Of a stretch of DNA of 64,000 nt, positions 1 to 10,362 are shown one piece after another. The position numbers and the translations under genes were made by a program. The stretch comes from an uncultured Acidobacteriota bacterium (GTDB taxonomy: Bacteria; Acidobacteriota; Terriglobia; Versatilivoradales; Versatilivoraceae). A model generated the notes under the pieces. That model was not told the DNA's origin and searched no databases. It saw nothing but the letters and a program-made list of their open reading frames with translations. Position 1 is the stretch's first letter. Every line of letters begins with the position of its first letter. The stretch covers positions 7,601-71,600 of the forward strand of contig CAWDMN010000105.1 of NCBI GenBank assembly GCA_963803155.1. Direction: 5' to 3'.

Positions 1-2619
1 ACCATCTGGACCGTCGCTGTGAACCTCGCCGGTATTGGGATGGAAAACATCCACTCCTTTTACCTTTACCTGTATTTGACCGTCATCCGCATGAAGGATG
101 ACAATATCTGGTTCGCCGAAAATAACAAACAGGTTGCCCTTACCGGTGTTTTTGAGGTCGTCGGACATGTGAAGGTCGGCATTCATTCGTGCCTTGAGAA
201 CCGGGATGCGGCCCAGTTTGTTGAACTCGGTGGCGTGAGCTTCATAGTTGAAGGCACACGCGATGAGCACGTCGAAATCGGCATCGCCTGCTTCGCGCGC
301 AGCTTGCACCAGATCGGGGCGTGTGACGGTGCCAAATTCTGGGCCAATAAAAATGGCGGCACGCTTCTCTTTACCTATTTGGGTGCCACGTTCAAAGTAA
401 CGCCCTTCAGCACCAACCAGATCGCCGGGCCAGGGCGTAAGCGAGGTGAAGGTGATTCTGCCTTCCTTGTGCGCCTGCTGAACGCCAGCCGCTTTTAGAT
501 TCTCCAAAATCATTTGCGCAAAGGATTGTTTATCTTCATAGGCTGAACTCTTTTCTTTGACGGTGTCGATTAGTTCATCGTTTTCATCTACACCCAGAAC
601 ACGGTGTGGCGAGAGGCTTTCAACGGTAAATGGACCAGCTACGCGGACTTTTCGATTGTCGATATAGGGTTTGTCGTAGAGGTACTCAAAATCAGCTTTA
701 GAGACGATGGAAGTATCGATCTCCTTTTGCCGGCTGATACGTGCATGCCACCAGTCAGCGTGCCACTTCTTAGCTGTCTCCGACCACCCCTTTTCCACCT
801 CTCGCGGGATTTCCCAATCTTGCCATTGCTTCTTCAGCGCTGCATTTAGTTTTCCGCGTATCGGCTCCAGCTTCGCCTGCCACTTCTCCCAGATGACATC
901 AATCTCCGTATTTTTGGTAATGGAACTAAGCATGATGTGCGGTACGCGCTCATAGATGAAGCCTTGACGGATGTTTTCATGCACGGGCTGTGAACTCGGC
1001 ACGGTACGGGTGACTTCAGCCTCTTTGAATTGGCCATCTCGGGAATCTGCCAACAAATAATAGGGATAGCGTGCACCCATGATACGGGCACGAGCCAGTG
1101 CCAGTGCTACCCGCGAGGTGTCAATAGTGATCCAACGGCGGCCCCATTGTTCGGCCACATAGGCAGTTGTACCAGATCCGCAGGTCGGATCAAGCACGAG
1201 ATCTCCAGGGTCCGTGGACATTAGGAGGCAGCGTTGAATCACAGTCTGCGAAGTTTGGACGACATAAATTTTGTCCGCCATGAAGCTCGCGCCGACATCG
1301 TCCCAACGATTGGAAATCTGAACGGCTGGGAAATCGTCAAGATAGCGAACATAGCCCAGCCGGCTTGTTGTAGCCTCCAGGCGACTTGCAGCTTTGAGAC
1401 GCTCCATCCCCTGCTCGTTTGTTTTCCATCGAACCGAAAGTGAAGGTTTGTAGATTCTGCCATCGATTTCGACACCGAACCAAGATGCAGCGCCCTCGCC
1501 TTTATCACGGCCAGCACTTTGCGAGGTCAGGTTGTCAAGTGAGTAGATACGCAAATCACCAGTAGCAATTCGCGGATCACTGAGTTTTGATTCTGTGAGG
1601 GCTTGGCTAATTCCGGATGCGTCACGGATGCGGTTATAGTTGGTGCCACCTTTTTCGCCCGGTTTCTTATGTTTCAGCGCCGGCCTGTATTTCACCCGAG
1701 ACTTATCTTTGCAATACCACAAGAGGTAGTCGGTCGTCTGACCAAGATGCTCTTCAGTTGAGCCCGATGTCTTTGCGAAACCGATAAGCGATACACAGTC
1801 ATCTTCCCCAAACACCTCATCCATCACCGCACGAACGCGGTGGACATTTTCATCACCGATCTGCATAAAGATGGAGCCCGAATCAGTGAGCAGATCACGG
1901 GCAACGGTGAGGCGGTCACGAAGGTAAGTGAGGTAGCTGTGGATGCCATCACGCCATGTATCTCGAAATGCCTTAACCTGTTCAGGCTCACGTGTAATAT
2001 GGTTGGTGTTACCATCCTTCACATCACGGCTAGTTGTGCTCCATTGGAAATTGCTATTAAATTTGATTCCGTAAGGTGGGTCGAAATAAATGCACTGAAC
2101 TTTGCCTCGCAAGCCTTCTCGCTCGGCCAAGGAGGCCATAACTTGTAAGCTGTCGCCAAGGATCATGCGGTTGGACCAGTTTTGGTCATGCTGATAAAAT
2201 TCTGTTTTGTCCACACCTTTGGGGATTCCGTTGAAATCGGCGAAAAGGTCGAGCTGGCGGGGAGTGGCTTGTGACCGGTGGCTAGTGGTTTGTGACTGGT
2301 GGCCTGTGCCTTGTACTTCACTAGCCGCTAGCCACTCGGAACTTGCCACTAAATCGTCTATCAGCACTTTGGGATGGACTTTTTCCTGAATATAAAGAGG
2401 CGGGGCTTGTACCACCAAATCGCTCCAGTCCTGCTCATCCTTGCCACGCCAGACAAGTTGCGGATCGAGGTCGCGATTGCGGCGTTCGTAGGCAATCTGA
2501 ATCGGCGACTTTTCTTCCTTTTTCAGCACGGACTGGTATTCCGCCGTCGGAATGTTTTTTCGCGTCGCATCTTCGTGCGTGAGGGTTTCGACCGTTTTAC
2601 CGTTTATTTTTTTCGCCAT
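1..2619 (-). CDS. mod: Type III-like RM system site-specific DNA adenine methyltransferase (Mod); 3' end runs off window
   Basis: Not in the ORF track. Manual translation from ATG 2619: MAKKINGKTVETLTHEDATRKNIPTAEY...NRMILGDSLQVMASLAEREGLRGKVQCIYFDPPYGIKFNSN (DPPY motif IV). The same frame reads ...FGEPDIVILHADDGQIQVKVKGVDVFHPNTGEV at base 1 and was open where spot-checked. Lies downstream of res. Confidence 0.9.
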   Translation of the reverse strand, partial: MAKKINGKTVETLTHEDATRKNIPTAEYQSVLKKEEKSPIQIAYERRNRDLDPQLVWRGKDEQDWSDLVVQAPPLYIQEKVHPKVLIDDLVASSEWLAASEVQGTGHQSQTTSHRSQATPRQLDLFADFNGIPKGVDKTEFYQHDQNWSNRMILGDSLQVMASLAEREGLRGKVQCIYFDPPYGIKFNSNFQWSTTSRDVKDGNTNHITREPEQVKAFRDTWRDGIHSYLTYLRDRLTVARDLLTDSGSIFMQIGDENVHRVRAVMDEVFGEDDCVSLIGFAKTSGSTEEHLGQTTDYLLWYCKDKSRVKYRPALKHKKPGEKGGTNYNRIRDASGISQALTESKLSDPRIATGDLRIYSLDNLTSQSAGRDKGEGAASWFGVEIDGRIYKPSLSVRWKTNEQGMERLKAASRLEATTSRLGYVRYLDDFPAVQISNRWDDVGASFMADKIYVVQTSQTVIQRCLLMSTDPGDLVLDPTCGSGTTAYVAEQWGRRWITIDTSRVALALARARIMGARYPYYLLADSRDGQFKEAEVTRTVPSSQPVHENIRQGFIYERVPHIMLSSITKNTEIDVIWEKWQAKLEPIRGKLNAALKKQWQDWEIPREVEKGWSETAKKWHADWWHARISRQKEIDTSIVSKADFEYLYDKPYIDNRKVRVAGPFTVESLSPHRVLGVDENDELIDTVKEKSSAYEDKQSFAQMILENLKAAGVQQAHKEGRITFTSLTPWPGDLVGAEGRYFERGTQIGKEKRAAIFIGPEFGTVTRPDLVQAAREAGDADFDVLIACAFNYEAHATEFNKLGRIPVLKARMNADLHMSDDLKNTGKGNLFVIFGEPDIVILHADDGQIQVKVKGVDVFHPNTGEVHSDGPDG
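2263..2351. repeat. In-frame heptamer inverted-repeat hairpin inside mod
   Basis: About 7 x nGTGGCT-like units followed by about 5 x TAGCCAC-like units. Encodes the low-complexity linker VASSEWLAASEVQGTGHQSQTTSHRSQAT. Confidence 0.8.
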
Positions 2620-2627
2620 GGTTTTTT

Positions 2628-2817
2628 GAAGGGTGAAGAGTGAAGAGTGAAATTTAGAAGGGTGAAGAGTGAAAGAAATGCCGCTTCTTCTTTTTCTTTG
2701 ACTTGCCTATTCACTCTTCTCCCTTCACTCTTCACTCTTCTTCATTCTGCCTTCTGATTTCACCCTTTGATCTTCTCCTTTTGCTCTTTTTACTTCACTC
2801 TTCACTCTTCTACCTTC
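2628..2817. repeat. Heptamer arrays downstream of four-helix-bundle gene 1
   Basis: 7 x GAAGRGT-like units at 2628-2677 and 16 in-register ACTCTTC-like units at 2706-2817; the two arrays are mutually inverted. Confidence 0.9.
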
Positions 2818-3176
2818 TTTTTTGTTCTGCACTTCTTTATAATCGAAATTAAAATGGCAACGAGTTGGTTGGCTTCGTCGATGAGGTCTTTCAATTTATT
2901 TGCTGGCACGACTTCAGTTGTAGCCAGCAGGCGCAGCCAATAATGAGTTTCGCGGGCTTCCTTGCAGGCAATGGAGTATTTGGAAATAAAATCGGCCCGG
3001 CTCTGGCTTCCCTGTCCCTCTTCGATATTGGCCCCAACCGAAGTGCCAGAACGCAGCAACTGATGAACTAGCGTTCGGCTGACTACTGGGGATTGGTCCA
3101 GTGTCTGGCAAAGTGCCACAATCCGCTTGGCAAACTCAAAGCTTCGCTCTGGCAAATCTCTCCTATGCTCTTCCAT
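2802..3176 (-). CDS. Four helix bundle protein (TIGR02436 / 23S rRNA IVP-like family)
   Basis: DLPERSFEFAKRIV...QLLRSGTSVGANIEEG...DFISKYSIACKEARETHYWLRLL signature. ATG at 3176 preferred over the GTG at 3188, which lies inside the repeats. Confidence 0.92.
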   Translation of the reverse strand: MEEHRRDLPERSFEFAKRIVALCQTLDQSPVVSRTLVHQLLRSGTSVGANIEEGQGSQSRADFISKYSIACKEARETHYWLRLLATTEVVPANKLKDLIDEANQLVAILISIIKKCRTKKKVEE

Positions 3177-3214
3177 TTCACCCTTCACTCTTCACCCTTC
3201 TACCTTCAACCCTG
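3173..3214. repeat. Heptamer array upstream of four-helix-bundle gene 1
   Basis: 5-6 x ACCCTTC/ACTCTTC-like units. Confidence 0.85.
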
Positions 3215-3236
3215 CCCTGCCATTCTTGGTGGCCTA

Positions 3237-3513
3237 TGATGCGTTTGAGGCCTTTATGAGGCTTTTGCTTTCCCGCCATGCAATTTCCTGTTTGTCCAGT
3301 CTATGTTCCGTTCACGATTGAGCGAATGAACCAATTCTAATGTCCCCAATGTCCCCATTTTGTCCCTGTTCCTCACATTCTCAACGTCAGGTTGTCCCAT
3401 CCAAGCAGGTTGCGATGAGTTTCGGATTGCCATTCCATCCGATTCAGTCGAAGGGCCATTTGAACTATTTATGAGCCGATTCTATGGCCCCTTTGGCCCC
3501 TTCTTGACCCCTT
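3237..3513. repeat. Array of five degenerate 29-bp tripartite (9-9-2-9) motifs
   Basis: Consensus TGnnCCnTT-TGnnCCnTT-TA-TGnnCCnTT at 3237-3265, 3284-3312, 3341-3369, 3452-3480 and 3485-3513. Confidence 0.65.
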
Positions 3514-4951
3514 TGGAGGAAACATAACGAGTCCCTTTCCCTGTTATGCCTTGTTTTTCGAGAACCCCTTTCTCAACCATATCCGTGAGATCTCGGTGAG
3601 CAGTTCGTTTTGATACCTTTATCTGAGCTTGATAGCCCGTATTGTTAATGAAGCCATATTTCCTTACGGAGTCTAATGCGAGCCGCTGCCGGTCGGACAA
3701 ACCCAATGAGGTCATTACCTCCTCGGTTAGCCAATCCCGCCAAAGCGTGATGACAAAAAAGCCCATTCGCTGCTCGAATTGGGGCTCGGCTAGTCCCGCT
3801 TCCCGGCATAAACCGATCATATTTTGGGTGCCGGAGCCTACTTTCTCGACGTACCGGGCCAAGTAGAGCGATTCGGCAATGAGCGGATTGTTGGGAACAG
3901 ACGGATGGTCATCACGAAGACTCTCCAATGTCAAAGTGCTGGGTAATCGGCCAGGATTCCAGACCTCCAGGCGGTCGGCAAAAAGACGCACCTCCACCGA
4001 TCCGTTGCTATTGTAGTCACGATGGGCGATGGCGTTGACAATGGCCTCTCCAATGGCATCAGGGGGGAGTTCGTAAGTGGCTGGCGCCGTGGGACCCGCT
4101 GAACGAATGCCAATGGCCCGGTTGATTTTGGCGAGTACGAAGTCGCGGGCCTGATTAACCTGCTCAAAAAGATCGCCAGTATAAATCTGCTGCGAACCAA
4201 AAGGGCGCCGGTATTCAGTGCCGTGACAGTGCACGCATTTGGTTTCAGCGGCGCGATGAAAACGCTGGGGAGCCGCTCCAAAAAGGAGAATCGCGGCATT
4301 GGTGGGCGATTTGCCGTCAAGCAGGTTTAGATGCGCCAGTAGAGCCTGCGTAGTTGTGTTGGCTTTGAGAGGGAAGCCCCGCTCGCGGCGGGCTGTTTCC
4401 AAAAACCACTCGATACGCTTTCGGGAAAGACTGGCTTGCGTGGCGCCTTCGCAGGCAGAAGTATCAAAAGGTGGAACACGTAAAGCATCCTTTTCATCCA
4501 GAAGGCGGACAAGACTTGAGTAGACCTCAGACGTAAGGGCATTGACATCTTCGATGCGGCGGCGAATGAGTTCGCTGCTGGCTTTGCGGATCAACTGTCC
4601 CATTTTGGGGTCGCGTTTCTTTTCATCCGATCCCCACACATAGACCAGTCTGGTTTTTTGTTTTTTAGTGGCATGCAGGTATTCGTGTTCCGTGGGAGAG
4701 ATGCCGTCTTGGCCCTCGCTTCCGTACTCATACCCGAAGATTCCCAAATAGATATCGCAACGCTCCACTTCTTCGAGGTAGAGCTGGTCCGCACGCCGGT
4801 CTGTGGCCGGAAGCTCCTCAAAAAGAAAAACCTCGGAAATAAAACGATGTAAGACCGCATCACCAAGGAGGAACGCCTTCAAGTCCAGACGGATTTGCGC
4901 AAACTCCTTTTGCACGCTGCCGATAAATATTTTCAAACGTGTTGCTGGCAT
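3482..4951 (-). CDS. DUF4062 domain + HATPase_c_4 (RecG C-terminal-like) + C-terminal winged HTH protein
   Basis: N-terminal KIFIGSVQKEF..R..L...CDIYLGIFGYEYG...SPTEHEY (DUF4062); EAIVNAIAHRDY...RLEVWNPG...NPLIA...VEKVGSG (HATPase_c_4); VSKRTAHRDLTDMVEKGVL (HTH). Confidence 0.85.
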   Translation of the reverse strand: MPATRLKIFIGSVQKEFAQIRLDLKAFLLGDAVLHRFISEVFLFEELPATDRRADQLYLEEVERCDIYLGIFGYEYGSEGQDGISPTEHEYLHATKKQKTRLVYVWGSDEKKRDPKMGQLIRKASSELIRRRIEDVNALTSEVYSSLVRLLDEKDALRVPPFDTSACEGATQASLSRKRIEWFLETARRERGFPLKANTTTQALLAHLNLLDGKSPTNAAILLFGAAPQRFHRAAETKCVHCHGTEYRRPFGSQQIYTGDLFEQVNQARDFVLAKINRAIGIRSAGPTAPATYELPPDAIGEAIVNAIAHRDYNSNGSVEVRLFADRLEVWNPGRLPSTLTLESLRDDHPSVPNNPLIAESLYLARYVEKVGSGTQNMIGLCREAGLAEPQFEQRMGFFVITLWRDWLTEEVMTSLGLSDRQRLALDSVRKYGFINNTGYQAQIKVSKRTAHRDLTDMVEKGVLEKQGITGKGTRYVSSKGVKKGPKGP

Positions 4952-4966
4952 TGCACAACCTCAATA

Positions 4967-5044
4967 AAAGTGTGAAGAGTGAAGTGTGAAGAGTGAAGTT
5001 TGAAGGGTGAAGTTTGAAATTTTAAAGTCAGAAATGAGAAGTTC
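4967..5044. repeat. Heptamer arm downstream of four-helix-bundle gene 2
   Basis: 11 x GAAGnnT-like units; inverted partner of 5414-5490. Confidence 0.9.
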
Positions 5045-5405
5045 ATGGCTGTCCTTTTTTTGACCGCAACTTGATGATGATGCTGGTAAGGATGGCAATG
5101 AGTTCATTGCATTCCTTGATGAGAGGATCAATTCTTGGGGCATCGAGCAGTTCTGTCGCCAGGATTAAACGGAGCCAGTAGTGGGTTTCGCGGGCTTCCT
5201 TGCAGGCGATACTGTATTTGCTAATGAAGTCCGCCTGGCTTTGGGAGCCCTGGCCTTCCTCAACATTAGCGCCAATCGAGGTTCCTGACCGCAAAAGCTG
5301 ATTGGACAAGGTTCTTGGCACTCCCGGTGTGCCATCGAGTTGCCGGCACAAACCGACAATTCCCTTGGCAAACTCAAATGTCCTTTCCGGCAAATCACTC
5401 TTCAT
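5043..5405 (-). CDS. Four helix bundle protein (TIGR02436 / 23S rRNA IVP-like family), paralog of 2802-3176
   Basis: DLPERTFEFAK...QLLRSGTSIGANVEEG...KEARETHYWLRL; roughly two-thirds identical to the other copy by eye. Confidence 0.92.
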   Translation of the reverse strand: MKSDLPERTFEFAKGIVGLCRQLDGTPGVPRTLSNQLLRSGTSIGANVEEGQGSQSQADFISKYSIACKEARETHYWLRLILATELLDAPRIDPLIKECNELIAILTSIIIKLRSKKGQP

Positions 5406-5413
5406 TCATCCAG

Positions 5414-5490
5414 CCCTTTCCCCCTTCAAACTTCACCCTTCACCTTTTACTCTTCAAACTTCACTCTTCACCCTTCACCCTTCACTCTTC
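5414..5490. repeat. Heptamer arm upstream of four-helix-bundle gene 2
   Basis: 11 in-register units ACYCTTC/AAACTTC; the outer edge supplies the res stop codon. Confidence 0.9.
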
Positions 5491-8400
5491 AAAAGCGCTC
5501 CAACATCTTATTAAATTCACTTTCGACCTTGGCATTAAAATCAGCTTCGATCTGGTAAACCTCAGTGAACTCAGCAAAATCCCAGCGTCCGTAACTACCG
5601 AGGTTATTGACGCCTGGCACCCAGTAGGTTTCCATGGTGTTTTTTTTGTCCTTCGCATCCTCTCGCCGATACCCTTTGATTTCGACGATTAGGTGCAGCA
5701 GGTCGTTTTCTCCGTGGCCATCCTCCACCAGCACAATAAAATCGGGGAGATACCTTCGCATTTCAGCGGCATAACGATAAGGCACTTCGAGGCCAAGGTT
5801 TTGGTTTTTTACATATGCCCGAACCTTTGAGTGTTTTTCGGCCACACGGCAAAACTCTGCTTCCCAATCGCTGTCGAGAATGACCCAATTGATGTGGCAG
5901 CGGCTGGCATCGGTTTGCCAGCGGTTCTTTTTCGAGGTGTTGAAATTTACATGAGCAGTGGAACCTGTAGGGTTATAAGGATCAAGGATTGCCTGGATGG
6001 GCCGTTTTCCAATCCATTTGCGGTTTATTCCTGCTATGATGCGCTCACATGCCACGTCTGCCAGCATTTTGTATGCAAGTTGTGCAGGGTAAGTTCCACC
6101 TTTGCAGACTAGGAAACCATCATCCAGCCATTGTTTCGCGATGCGTTTCAGTTGGCCGAAAAGGTGAAGCTTGGGGGCTTCTCCCGGATCCCGCCACTTA
6201 TAGAGCACCAGGTGGGAAGTCAACTCATACAATACCTGCGATGGACGGATGTTCCCGGTGTGGACCAAGTTCAGATCTATCTTTTCTCCGATGATGCCGG
6301 AGTTCTGGGTTTCTGTGGCGCCAACAAGGTCCGGCGTCAATTCCAAAACTGAGTCTTCATTGAATTGAGCGGTCAATCGTTCTTCAGGCAACTCGATGCG
6401 ATAGCCCTCGACCCGTGGAAAACGGATTTCCAAATGATCTCGCTCGGGCCGCATGGCTTTGACATGGATGGTTTCTCGAGGAGGCTGTGGGGGCGCAACA
6501 ACTGGTTTGGCCGTGAAATCGAAGGGGATCCCCAGCACATCGGCGTATTCCACATTGAATAGATTTTCTTCGTTCAGGTCGTAAGATTGGCGGCGCAAGG
6601 CGCGTCCGATGACTTGTTCGCAAAGGAGTTGGGTTCCGAAGGCTCTCACACCGAGCACATGCGTCACGGTGTTGGCATCCCACCCTTCGGTGAGCATGGA
6701 GACCGAGACGACACAGCGGATGGAACCACCCAAGCGCCCTGGTTTTCCGACCGTGTTCATCACTTCCCGTAAAAGTTCCTGATCGGAGAGGTTCTCCGCT
6801 TGACGGCGGTCACCACTGCGCTCGATTATTTCGCGTCGGAACCGTTCGATTTCATCGGAGGCCATGCCGCGAAAATTGTCATCCAGCCCTTCCCCCGATT
6901 CGAGTTGTTCACTGTCGATCAATATCGTGTTGGGCCGAGCTAGAGGATTGCCATTTTCATCAAAATTGCGAAACAGAGCAAGCCGGCCATTTTCTAGGTT
7001 TACCGATCCGTCCTCGTTTTGGCGTTGAAATCCAGAGATGTAGTCGTAGACGAGTTTGGAGGTGGAAGTGTTGTTGCAAACCACAATAAAACAAGGGGGG
7101 ACATTAATTCCCGATTCTGCCCAAAGACTGAAAGTCTTTTGGTAATGGCCATAAAGAGCTTCCAATGCCGTTTGGAGTTGGGGAGGCAGGCTCAGAGGAT
7201 CGAGGCTGTTGGATTTTCCTCTTCCTTTTTTGGGCATTTTCGATCGGATATGTTTCCACAAATCGCGGTACATGGGCATATCCACGCCTGGGATATTGTC
7301 TGCCACTGGAACGCGAGGCAATTTAACGATGCCGCACTCGATGGCGTCCATTAGTGAAAAGTCGCTCATGGTCCAAGGGAAGAGAGTGCCTTCCGCATAA
7401 CCGGAACCGCGCAGGAAGAATGGTGTGGCGGACAAATCAATGACTCGCGTGAGGCCGATTTTCCGATTTACCGCTTCAAGTCCCGAAATCCAGAGCCGGG
7501 CAGCCTCATTGTTTTTCTCGGCTTCCTTTCGTTCATCACCTTTTAAGTCCTCATCCGTTGACGCTTCTGGTTTTTCACGGTAGCAATGGTGAGCTTCGTC
7601 ATTAATGACAAGAATATTCTTTAGCCCCATCAAATCAGGCATGACCCTTTGGAGCATCTGACCTGCCGTCTCAAGCGTGTTAAGCGATTCGCCGCGTCCT
7701 TGCAAGAGCGAGCGGCCCCCTTTGGAAAGCTCAATTCGTTCACGACATTTAAAGGCATGGAAATTCGTGATGACGATTTTGGCGCGATTTACATCTTCCA
7801 AGAGATCTGTAGGCACTAACTCCCGGCTGGCATAGTAACTGTCAGGATCGTTGGGCTGCAGCACTCGCAGCCGATCACGGATCGTGAGCCCAGGTGAAAC
7901 AACCAGGAAGCCGCGAGAAAATTTACGGCTCTGCGGATGCCGGACCGCATTAATGGTTTGCCAGGCTATAATCATAGCCATAACCGTTGTTTTTCCTGCA
8001 CCCGTGGCTAATTTAAGGGCGAGGCGCATTAACTCCGGATTTGCATCGTTGTTGGCATTCACAAGATGGTCCAGAATTCCTTTCCCAGCTTTGCCTGCTT
8101 GTGGCGCGACTTCAGTTAACCAAATGAGAGTCTCGATTGCCTCCACCTGGCAGAAAAATGGACGAATGCCCCAAAATTTATGGTGCCGCCAATGTTGGAG
8201 CAATCGAGCAGTTTCAGGTGAGACTTGCCAATTATCAGATGGCAAGGTGCGCCATTGGTCTACATAATGGCGTAATTCATTAATAATCGGGGTGGGATCA
8301 TATTGTTGCTTGGCAGTCGAAAGCCCTAGCCCCTCATCGAATACAATCTCTGTCTGGCTTGCCGCAGTTCTCTGTTTCTTTGGTTTAGGGATTGGAGTGA

Positions 8401-8530
8401 TAAATTCTGCCAGGCGGCGGCGTTCGATAATTCGCTGAGTGGGCTGTCCTTGAGCATCAAGTTCCCAGTACCGGCCGGGGTATTCATAGGGCGAATTCAG
8501 GATGGGATGTTCGAAAAATTGATTTTCCAT
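5489..8530 (-). CDS. res: Type III restriction enzyme Res subunit (SF2 helicase + PD-(D/E)xK nuclease)
   Basis: KLATGAGKT (Walker A), INDEAHH, MLTEGWD, EQVIGRALR, YLPDFIV...VEIKG. Start placed at MENQFFEHPILNSPY (8530). Confidence 0.92.
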   Translation of the reverse strand: MENQFFEHPILNSPYEYPGRYWELDAQGQPTQRIIERRRLAEFITPIPKPKKQRTAASQTEIVFDEGLGLSTAKQQYDPTPIINELRHYVDQWRTLPSDNWQVSPETARLLQHWRHHKFWGIRPFFCQVEAIETLIWLTEVAPQAGKAGKGILDHLVNANNDANPELMRLALKLATGAGKTTVMAMIIAWQTINAVRHPQSRKFSRGFLVVSPGLTIRDRLRVLQPNDPDSYYASRELVPTDLLEDVNRAKIVITNFHAFKCRERIELSKGGRSLLQGRGESLNTLETAGQMLQRVMPDLMGLKNILVINDEAHHCYREKPEASTDEDLKGDERKEAEKNNEAARLWISGLEAVNRKIGLTRVIDLSATPFFLRGSGYAEGTLFPWTMSDFSLMDAIECGIVKLPRVPVADNIPGVDMPMYRDLWKHIRSKMPKKGRGKSNSLDPLSLPPQLQTALEALYGHYQKTFSLWAESGINVPPCFIVVCNNTSTSKLVYDYISGFQRQNEDGSVNLENGRLALFRNFDENGNPLARPNTILIDSEQLESGEGLDDNFRGMASDEIERFRREIIERSGDRRQAENLSDQELLREVMNTVGKPGRLGGSIRCVVSVSMLTEGWDANTVTHVLGVRAFGTQLLCEQVIGRALRRQSYDLNEENLFNVEYADVLGIPFDFTAKPVVAPPQPPRETIHVKAMRPERDHLEIRFPRVEGYRIELPEERLTAQFNEDSVLELTPDLVGATETQNSGIIGEKIDLNLVHTGNIRPSQVLYELTSHLVLYKWRDPGEAPKLHLFGQLKRIAKQWLDDGFLVCKGGTYPAQLAYKMLADVACERIIAGINRKWIGKRPIQAILDPYNPTGSTAHVNFNTSKKNRWQTDASRCHINWVILDSDWEAEFCRVAEKHSKVRAYVKNQNLGLEVPYRYAAEMRRYLPDFIVLVEDGHGENDLLHLIVEIKGYRREDAKDKKNTMETYWVPGVNNLGSYGRWDFAEFTEVYQIEADFNAKVESEFNKMLERF

Positions 8531-8964
8531 TTCACTTTCTGCTTTCCAGAAATCCGTAGGCATAATTTCAGAAGTTGCTTCACCACGGGCGGCACACAAG
8601 GCAGTATCAACGGATTGTGCTGAGCCTGAAGGAATCATTCCCTGTTCTGGGAATGTGAATCTCGCCTTGTTCAAGCAAGCATGGACAACAATATGCCTGC
8701 GCGAAGCACGCATTGCCGACAGATAAAATATGAATGAGACTTTCTGTGAGTGCTCTTTCCCAGCGTCGTGTACGTAAACGGAGAATCAGGTCTGAAAAAG
8801 AGTTGTCATGATGAAAGCATGGAACAATTTATCATCGTATCAAATGCAAATCAACAAATAGCATCAAACAATATGCCATTTTCAACACGGGCTATAGAGT
8901 TGTCTAAATCCATGCGATTTGAAAATGGCACTATTCATTTATGTTCCATTCATATTTAACATTC

Positions 8965-9272: not shown

Positions 9273-10362
9273 GGTGCCTGACTTGACTATTTGACTATTT
9301 CCACCTGCTTCCCATCTTGCATGAGCAGGCCCATGAGTCGATCTTCAAGTTGAGGATGGTTTTGGATTTTGGCGTCATATCGGCGATTCATCCTGGTCGC
9401 TGCACTGGGATGTACTCCCAAAAAACGGGCGACTTCTATGGCAGGATAAAACATGCTCCGTGTTGCCACATGTACAAAGCGTTCCCGAACTTCCGTTTGC
9501 TGCCGGGCGCCTTTGTGGCTTCGACGGAATTCCGCAAGCGTCATCCCCTCTGCCCCGGCCAACAGCTCCGCCAGTTCTGACAAGGACATCTTTTGCCTTG
9601 TGTATGCGCGTCGCCGCCTGCGTCTGGGTTCGCCTTCTTCGCTCACCCGGCTGATGAAATCCTTGTTTCCCAGCATCGGCAGCGAGGGCAACGGATAAAT
9701 TTGTTCCGGCCTCAGATCTGGCGCCTGCGCCAAAAACTCCTGCAGCCGATGGCGAGGTTGCCTTCCAAATATTTCCATTACATCTTTTTGAAATAGCCAT
9801 TCATTTTTGCTTTTCCCCAAATATGCCGCGAAGCTGCTCCATTCCCACTCCTGCGGCCATTGAACCAACCGAGCCCGCACGGGATTCAGATGGATATACC
9901 GAACCAGTTCCAGCAGATAGGATCGCTTGTCGCATAAGATTCCGCGAAACCGTCCTTGAAAGACATGCCCAACCTTGTGATATTTATTGTTGAAGTAGCG
10001 GGCATAGCTCGTCGCGAGGGACCGCATGGCCAGAGATACCGATAAATCCTGCTGCTCGATCAAGAGATGGAAATGGTTGGGCATAAGACAATAGCTATGA
10101 ATTCGCACCTTGTACCGGCTACTGATCTTCTCCAAACCTTCCAGCATTTGCCGGTAGTCCGAATCATCGCGGTATATCTGTTCCCGCCGATTCCCACGAT
10201 TGATGCAGTGATAGAAAGCCCCCGGAAAGCATATTCGGCGACATCTGCCCATCGGTCACCTGCCGTCCCGACCCTTTCTTGATTCCCCTTTGATCCTCGT
10301 GTCCTCAATTTTACAGCCAATTTTCAATAATTGGAAATAGTCAAATAGTCAAGTCAGGCACC
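9273..10362. mobile_element. HUH/Y1 transposase element bounded by perfect 31-bp inverted repeats
   Basis: GGTGCCTGACTTGACTATTTGACTATTTCCA at 9273-9303 and its exact reverse complement at 10332-10362; no target duplication seen. Confidence 0.85.
9287..10252 (-). CDS. REP-associated tyrosine transposase (RAYT / IS200-like Y1) with C-terminal HTH extension
   Basis: YHCINRGNRR, YCLMPNHFHLL (HUH), GHVFQGRF, YIHLNPVRA, WSS motifs. Confidence 0.9.
   Translation of the reverse strand: MGRCRRICFPGAFYHCINRGNRREQIYRDDSDYRQMLEGLEKISSRYKVRIHSYCLMPNHFHLLIEQQDLSVSLAMRSLATSYARYFNNKYHKVGHVFQGRFRGILCDKRSYLLELVRYIHLNPVRARLVQWPQEWEWSSFAAYLGKSKNEWLFQKDVMEIFGRQPRHRLQEFLAQAPDLRPEQIYPLPSLPMLGNKDFISRVSEEGEPRRRRRRAYTRQKMSLSELAELLAGAEGMTLAEFRRSHKGARQQTEVRERFVHVATRSMFYPAIEVARFLGVHPSAATRMNRRYDAKIQNHPQLEDRLMGLLMQDGKQVEIVK

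Follow-up and report, generated by a model that had tools for sequence, protein, structure and literature searches.

What does a gene for a small four-helix-bundle (4HB) protein do between the genes of a restriction-modification (R-M) operon, and why is it enclosed by two arrays of short tandem repeats that are complementary to each other? The question was raised by a 64,000-nt stretch of DNA from an uncultured Acidobacteriota bacterium (assembly GCA_963803155.1, contig CAWDMN010000105.1, positions 7,601 to 71,600; referred to here as the window), in which an initial annotation had described a possibly mobile hairpin-plus-protein cassette resembling the intervening sequences (IVSs) of 23S rRNA. 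The analysis reported here favors, with a probability that we put at about 0.55, the reading that this region is one of two IVS-type foldback cassettes in the R-M operon, the protein-operon counterpart of the rRNA IVSs.

Every gene in this part of the window is encoded on the minus strand, and coordinates written in descending order follow the coding strand. The upstream arm of the cassette (5415-5491, minus strand) consists of 11 in-register TGAAGNN heptamers, the number given in the initial annotation; read from 5491 to 5415, nine of them match the TGAAG core exactly and the other two are degenerate, and Tandem Repeats Finder reports a period of 7 with 10.6 copies and 76% matches. The first unit (5491-5485) contains the TGA (5491-5489) that ends the upstream gene res, confirming that the outer edge of the array supplies the res stop codon. 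As TGA recurs once per 7 nt, every frame meets a stop within three units of this arm, which also terminates the upstream gene and whose last units lead into the start codon of the 4HB gene (5043-5405, minus strand; 120 aa plus stop; PF05635, TIGR02436). The downstream arm (4968-5044, minus strand) is built of NCTTCAN heptamers complementary to the upstream arm, with seven good units and, on the ORF side, four degenerate ones when read from 5044 to 4968; Tandem Repeats Finder detects 7.3 good copies of period 7 at 4968-5018. A complementary array is present as claimed, but the 11 downstream heptamers originally counted are reached only if the four degenerate units are included. Complementarity between the two arms amounts to 88% over 51 nt and 78% over 58 nt. 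The 4HB stop codon TGA (5045-5043) shares bases with an ATG (5046-5044), and the ATGA at 5046-5043 opens a 37-codon frame ending 15 nt inside the next gene.

The upstream neighbor, res (5489-8713, minus strand), encodes a restriction subunit with ResIII and RE_endonuc domains and belongs to the BPTD_3080 family (NF046055, 1387.8 bits against a cut-off of 800). The next operon gene (3482-4951, minus strand), encoding DUF4062 and HATPase_c_4 domains, starts 17 nt past the downstream arm, with GAGG in between. The only Pfam-supported ORF of the cassette is the 4HB ORF, which bears out the description of a self-contained hairpin-plus-protein unit without a transposase, and the neighbors are co-oriented with no promoter-like or terminator-like site within either operon cassette, as expected of an insert placed between operon genes. 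The pentamer AAAAG does occur on both sides of the unit (4966-4970 and 5491-5495), and the deletion product quoted in the initial annotation (one AAAAG copy and the insert removed) had been correctly read. A target-site duplication is not supported for AAAAG, however: flanking repeats of at least 4 nt were found in 30/77 of the relatives described below, against 164/301 shifted controls. The likeliest reading of the pentamer is that it marks the margin of a degenerate heptamer unit, an alternative that had already been offered.

In the predicted RNA fold of the 551-nt unit, the two arms form the outer stem, with a minimum free energy (MFE) of -201 kcal/mol compared with a mean of -164.5 for shuffled sequences (z -5.85, none of 100 shuffles folding as well). 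From this model we infer that the arms pair in RNA and that the ORF lies within an imperfect hairpin stem, as proposed. RNAduplex energy was uninformative on 220-nt flanks because controls scored equally low; it was dropped as a measure of arm pairing and local alignment scores were used instead. Lag-7 identity was 0.83 and 0.80 in the flanks of the window 4HB gene against a mean of 0.39 (95th percentile 0.49) in random 220-nt windows of the genome. Runs of at least three TGAAG[AGT][GT] units are confined to four places in the 7.5-Mb genome, each of them in one of the two operon cassettes.

The second cassette spans 2627-3218, about 2 kb from the first and just upstream of mod (1-2619, minus strand; N6_N4_Mtase; continuing beyond the window edge), so that the two cassettes bracket the DUF4062/HATPase_c_4 gene. 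Its upstream arm (3177-3218, minus strand) is made of GTGAAGR-type units, the last of which includes the ATG at 3176 of the second 4HB gene (2802-3176, minus strand; 124 aa from ATG; PF05635, TIGR02436); the proteins of the two operon 4HB genes share 68% identity. The downstream complementary arm (2627-2673, minus strand) includes 26 nt with 96% complementarity to 3175-3200, and the mod start ATG (2619) lies 8 nt past its end. Extra sense-oriented heptamer runs 3' of the ORF (2710-2818, minus strand) vie with the upstream arm for one pairing partner. The fold of this cassette has a z of -4.5, and its centroid structure joins the downstream arm to the far upstream arm.

Both proteins are clear members of their family. 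The window 4HB protein matched TIGR02436, the family to which it had been assigned, at 1.2e-27 (96.3 bits against a cut-off of 24) and PF05635 at 6.8e-22 (78.1 bits against a cut-off of 33.8); the corresponding values for the second protein were 3.1e-29 (101.4 bits) and 2.2e-23 (82.9 bits). The closest solved chain by sequence is PDB 2RLD (9e-21 over residues 6-111), an entry with five chains, and a Xanthomonas homologue is a homopentameric ring according to an excerpt of PMC4990558. PADLOC gave no match for the 4HB proteins. The source genome has one RNase III gene and 14 PF05635 matches, none of whose loci lies inside an rRNA gene in the Rfam comparison. A cyanobacterial origin of the window was rejected, HIP1 being no more frequent than expected by chance. 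No reverse transcriptase was found beside the 4HB genes of this genome, the five RVT_1 genes above cut-off being on other contigs or more than 70 kb away from any 4HB match.

Are the arms a peculiarity of this operon or a trait of the family? The locus search confirmed 586 relatives, of which the best 80, from more than 12 phyla, were examined (loci are designated by L and a number); the closest relative (81% identity) comes from a different phylum. Enough flank for lag analysis was available for 77 of the 80, with a threshold of lag-7 identity of at least 0.6. Lag-7 arrays were present in at least one flank in 74/77 relatives and in both flanks in 49/77, while the best of four control lags (5, 6, 8 and 9) reached the threshold in only 9/77 upstream and 7/77 downstream flanks; likewise, 125/155 adjacent flanks passed it compared with 5/144 windows taken at a distance of about 1 kb within these loci. 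The enrichment of inverted arrays around family members, which the initial annotation had set as a test of its proposal, is therefore strong. Five other genomes hold 16 copies above cut-off, every one with such arrays, built of still other units (five of the 16 repeat loci from the first relative set). Within the source genome, 9/14 PF05635 matches showed lag-7 identity of at least 0.6 in at least one flank, and four of the remaining five belong to a subfamily with a 14-nt unit, described below.

The repeat unit differs between copies in the genome (e.g. CAGCTRT, GGTCAGT, GTCTGCC, GCAGATT and GGATGAG), and the downstream arm belonging to the same copy was the best partner of the upstream arm in 9/10 copies, with a mean arm-pair score of 20.8 for own pairs against 8.8 for permuted pairs. 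This own-arm matching is covariation at the paralogue level. Across loci, TGAAG-type arms lead in 16/29 at 65% protein identity or more and in 1/24 at 57% or less, and AAAGG-type arms in 0/29 and 7/24, respectively. By these comparisons the repeat unit follows protein similarity across phyla, and arms and gene transfer together. Among cyanobacteria, 100 of the 201 genomes searched have a 4HB match, and the best 30 loci showed lag 7 in 18, lag 8 in 10, lag 9 in one and no clear array in one. As periods of 7, 8 and 9 all occur, the rule is one of tandem short-unit inverted arms, of which 7 is the commonest period. The cyanobacterial genomes with period-8 (10 loci) and period-9 (one locus) arms are mostly small (~2 Mb) and low in GC (L177-L200).

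A direct link to the rRNA IVSs came from the spirochaete-containing phylum, where 41 of 201 genomes scanned had a match and 20 loci were compared with Rfam. One of these 20, L144, falls within a large subunit (LSU) rRNA match that scores 2187.7 bits. About seven heptamers (GAGGACA GATGACA GAAGACT ...) come before its ORF, the last of them including the ATG, and a downstream arm of 35 nt with 83% complementarity comes after it; the arm includes GACAGAT, the unit reported for the Coxiella IVS. In the Coxiella IVS, as described in the same excerpt of PMC4990558, the ORF is preceded by two or three tandem GACAGAT copies, the copy number differs among strains, the 5' cut by RNase III falls at the first repeat, and the ends make a 28-bp stem. 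The layout shared by L144 and Coxiella identifies the window cassette as the classical ORF-bearing IVS design placed in an mRNA, in agreement with the likeness first proposed. The window cassette and the rRNA IVSs, which include the Leptospira, Coxiella, Xanthomonas and Brucella types, have in common the protein family in the loop, the long stem formed from complementary ends, the tandem heptamers of the 5' arm that reach the start codon (in L144 and, in the excerpt of PMC4990558, in Coxiella) and a sporadic, horizontal distribution. They differ in that the window copy sits between protein-coding genes (res and the DUF4062 gene) with no rRNA helix, and in the length of the arms, about 11 units in the window against 3-7 in rRNA. 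RNase III excision has been shown for rRNA IVSs, whereas for the window cassette it is predicted by analogy.

The operon setting recurs among relatives. Neighbors in the best 80 loci were called from ORFs only, and 100 of 152 neighbor ORFs were scanned against Pfam; among the 72 loci for which both neighbors were called, 39 have the two in the orientation of the 4HB gene. The scanned neighbors included a type III mod downstream in seven loci and type I HsdM/N6_Mtase, HsdS or HsdR in seven, together with the genes that usually ride in R-M operons (RhuM, DUF1016/YhcG, Fic, AlbA_2/HATPase_c_4 and Zeta). Housekeeping neighbor pairs also occurred, gap-MFS three times and EngA-CbiQ twice.

Whether the cassette can be absent from a site that it occupies elsewhere could be addressed at one of these pairs. 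Five related genomes with res orthologues (75-77% at the aa level) have no 4HB cassette between res and mod, and the orthologues diverge at their C-termini exactly where the array starts in the window, but they are too diverged to yield an empty junction at the DNA level. A metagenome scan for the window cassette flanks joined by 0-30 nt gave no matches. In these five genomes (L096-L100) the stretch between res and mod is a variable slot, occupied by PIN/VapBC-like pairs, a DUF1016/YhcG-like gene or a HigBA-like pair, or nearly empty. For the gap-MFS site of L018, the search covered 61 genomes from the family of L018 and gave 28 non-query junctions with both flanks on one contig. Eighteen of these had at most 102 nt between the flank matches, one was filled by a homologous cassette, one held an internal-deletion form, and eight contained 180-1402 nt of different or unknown sequence, which in one case starts with array remnants. 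The cassette is thus present at some orthologous sites in relatives and absent from others, so that the empty alleles called for at the outset exist at gap-MFS, although the res locus itself has no relative close enough to compare. The insertion is not a clean one, contrary to the initial deletion model: comparison of filled with empty gap-MFS alleles (10 loci read) shows that some 33 nt in the region of the gap stop and the MFS start have been replaced. In the filled allele the gap frame enters the array and ends at an array TGA, just like the res frame of the window. An ATGA overlap joins the 4HB stop to the MFS start in L018 and L019, and in L018, L019 and L043 the MFS start precedes the downstream arm, which is translated as the MFS N-terminus. 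In L203 (G495:C31), also at a gap-MFS junction, the arms are kept and the 4HB gene is internally deleted, its first ~12 codons being joined to its last ~15.

The source genome further contains many arrays without a 4HB gene. Tandem Repeats Finder listed 780 tandem repeats, of which 140 were of strict period 7 after merging; 128 of the 140 are intergenic, 89 lying between co-oriented, 28 between convergent and 8 between divergent genes. Inverted array pairs number 33, with loops of 36-760 nt. At a score of at least 20, 70 of 124 gene-less arrays matched the arms of resident 4HB genes, whereas sets of ten foreign arms averaged 13.6 and reached 31 at most; two resident 4HB genes account for 31 and 22 gene-less arrays. 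No 4HB gene remnants were detected in the gene-less hairpin loops at E<=0.05 outside the known copies. Very long arrays also occur, at C26:43066-43565 (500 nt, 14-nt unit) and C87:61602-61884 (283 nt, 7-nt unit), the latter in an open frame of 156 aa that need not be a real gene.

The subfamily with a 14-nt unit has defined inverted ends (GTAACTACTCAGG...), and the 8 bp flanking its elements match at 7 or more of 8 positions in 34/42 (16 exactly) against 0/42 shifted controls. It comprises two full-length 431-bp copies, one with an intact and one with a broken gene (C84:45866-46296 and C54:22303-22733), and about 40 more sites (e.g. C74:61624-61806 and C76:4901-5083), among them 28 internal-deletion copies of 182-183 bp that retain the first and last codons. 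Judged by these ends and flanks, it is a transposon-like element with 8-bp duplications. Other element families of 140-150 bp (e.g. C65:104593-104734, C82:44757-44901 and C56:98929-99071) share the end motif GTAACTRCTCAG and the 8-bp duplications around unrelated interiors. IS66 was considered as a possible mobilizer of the 14-nt-unit subfamily: IS66 copies of the genome also give 8-bp duplications, with ends (GTAAGCG...) that match those of the 14-nt-unit element in the first four bases only. A Y1/RAYT transposase was considered as mobilizer and rejected, as only 1/24 Y1 genes has an array within 600 nt. One Y1_Tnp protein (321 aa) is encoded in the window at 9287-10252 (minus strand) and scores 74.8 bits, against a cut-off of 80, with the model for REP-associated tyrosine transposases (RAYTs; REP, repetitive extragenic palindromic).

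Taken as an IVS-type cassette, the unit would act in the polycistronic RNA. The arms would pair as an imperfect duplex of 50-75 bp that hides the ribosome-binding region of the 4HB gene and could serve as an RNase III substrate, as in rRNA IVSs. Cleavage would separate the res, middle and mod messages from one another and set the 4HB RNA free, making the insertion tolerable, or regulatory, for the operon. On this account the cassette decays to gene-less arrays and internal-deletion forms.

Several observations weigh against this account. A cut in the gap-MFS stem would sever the MFS message, so excision cannot be obligatory everywhere. ATGA is found at 27/48 TGA-terminated 4HB ORFs (L015-L094), about twice the expectation from base composition, an excess which suggests translational coupling via the downstream arm rather than release. 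In the second operon cassette the MFE fold joins the downstream arm to the nearby sense repeats, and its pairing is ambiguous because the MFE and centroid folds choose different partners. A 4HB gene is present in only 9/101 heptamer-array regions of the genome, and an inverted pair of the GGATGAG type (contig C52:47856-48771) encloses an unrelated 250-aa gene, nucleotidyl transferase-like. Lastly, the excerpt of PMC4990558 judges the ORF in the IVS that it describes to be probably untranslated in vivo, so that the cutting model leaves the role of the protein unexplained.

Among the alternatives, the one that survives best, although we hold it to be unlikely, is a two-part selfish system working on DNA, or on RNA as a template, in which the ring-forming, Avd-related 4HB protein would recognize its own repeat unit and spread or maintain arrays of it. 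The gene with its cognate arrays would be the master copy and the gene-less arrays its dependants, much as REPs relate to RAYTs. It would account for the 70/124 gene-less arrays that match resident arms, well above the foreign sets (mean 13.6, maximum 31), and for the fact that each gene copy has its own unit and that the unit tracks protein similarity; the five chains of PDB 2RLD and the homopentameric Xanthomonas ring (excerpt of PMC4990558) fit the same picture. The family, however, is without known catalytic activity, no reverse transcriptase lies beside any 4HB gene of this genome, no flanking duplication was found at heptamer cassettes among the 77 relatives, and unit lengths of 7, 8 and 9 misfit a fixed protein-spacing rule. 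The shared units, moreover, can come from common descent and decay of full cassettes, for which internal-deletion forms such as L203 and the 182-183-bp copies of the 14-nt-unit subfamily provide examples. In its broader form, the idea would make the 4HB ring and cognate 7-9-nt arrays, read as RNA or single-stranded DNA (ssDNA), a widespread bacterial selfish system; this extension is speculative and rather doubtful, but if the selfish reading were true, rRNA IVSs, cyanobacterial heptamers and gene-less hairpins would be products of one mechanism.

The arms might instead serve translation, and not RNase III cutting. The upstream arm would then end the upstream gene in any frame and hide the 4HB start, and ribosomes re-starting at the 4HB stop would continue through the downstream arm as far as the next gene or into it, melting the stem and coupling expression across the insert. 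This has a small chance of being the better explanation. The ATGA excess already described, the 37-codon frame opened by the ATGA of the window, the arm-encoded MFS N-termini in L018, L019 and L043 and the single TGA in every upstream-arm unit are what would be expected from it. Yet TAA or TAG is the stop codon in 32 of the 80 ORFs tallied (21+1 TAA, 8+1 TAG), which lack the ATGA overlap, two having another stop-start overlap, and true rRNA IVSs of the same layout are not translated through.

A slim chance is left to the view that the arrays are generic intergenic repeats arising by slippage, independently of the gene, in which 4HB genes land or survive. The 92/101 array regions without a 4HB gene, the intergenic position of 128/140 arrays and the array pair that brackets the unrelated 250-aa gene are in keeping with such an origin. 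Against it, the gene has arrays at its sides in genomes of more than 12 phyla, their units go with protein relatedness and not with the host, and the unit of the window is confined to two cassettes in the genome. Arrays are also absent at short empty gap-MFS junctions (e.g. L204, L207, L211 and L212; 10 read), and a 23S rRNA helix is no pre-existing array site, yet the insert there has arms. That the arrays are a chance or low-complexity artefact, for which nothing speaks apart from the degeneracy of some units, is refuted by the repeat counts, arm complementarity, lag-7 controls, shuffles, unit scan and flank comparison, and has a negligible probability.

The IVS-type foldback cassette can be compared with several known systems. 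Correia elements of Neisseria are co-transcribed inverted-repeat elements whose RNA hairpins are cut by RNase III; they resemble the present cassette as intergenic inserts in operons whose inverted ends would fold into an RNase III-type mRNA stem. Correia elements differ, however, in having no gene, unique-sequence ends and a target duplication; the present cassette instead has tandem arrays as arms, carries a gene in its loop and gave no sign of a duplication. The foldback transposons of Drosophila have long inverted ends of tandem short repeats, with or without a coding loop, and share this end design; being eukaryotic and unrelated in sequence, they offer a likeness of layout only. As in REP/RAYT systems, inverted copies of a gene's own repeat stand on both sides of it and many gene-less copies are scattered through intergenic DNA, but the gene here encodes a 4HB protein and not a Y1 transposase (model NF047646), and only 1/24 Y1 genes is near an array. 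The short tandemly repeated repetitive (STRR) heptamers of cyanobacteria are tandem 7-nt units in intergenic DNA, and 18/30 cyanobacterial 4HB genes have tandem 7-nt arrays as arms, a comparison of unit length and not of unit sequence; the full-text literature searched does not tie STRR arrays to the 4HB family. A miniature inverted-repeat transposable element (MITE) differs from the operon cassettes, which exist in two copies only, with proteins 68% identical, and which in the window show no more than the 5-bp AAAAG as a flanking repeat. Avd, an accessory protein of diversity-generating retroelements (DGRs), belongs to a related four-helix-bundle family (PMC10053308, in excerpt). Unlike in DGRs, the 4HB gene here has no adjacent reverse transcriptase, template repeat or variable repeat.

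To our knowledge, the function and origin of ORF-bearing rRNA IVSs and of the very common genes annotated as 'four helix bundle protein' have stood as questions since the 1990s. Already in print are the protein family, the ORF-bearing rRNA IVSs, their RNase III processing and the heptamers of one species. Within the full-text literature searched, to which supplements and subscription-only journals did not belong, a family-wide description of the arms was absent, heptamers being noted for one species (excerpt of PMC4990558). New with respect to that literature are the family-wide inverted arms, the non-rRNA copies across phyla, the period-8/9 variants, the gene-less array families sharing resident units and the transposon-like subfamily. 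With the gene nearly always enclosed by such inverted arrays, in operons and rRNA alike, a vaguely named family becomes a defined genetic element with testable parts (stem, unit and ring protein) and a possible source for at least some unexplained intergenic heptamer arrays. The element also illustrates how an insert can sit between operon genes, or overlap them, without breaking them, as the repeats stop every frame and the downstream arm can code.

Two minor observations concern the neighboring operon genes. The DUF4062/HATPase_c_4 protein (3482-4951) gave partial matches to PADLOC models of Argonaute-associated proteins, the best at 2.2e-16, and the mod frame holds a 21-nt tandem repeat at 2263-2314 (2.5 copies, 80% matches).

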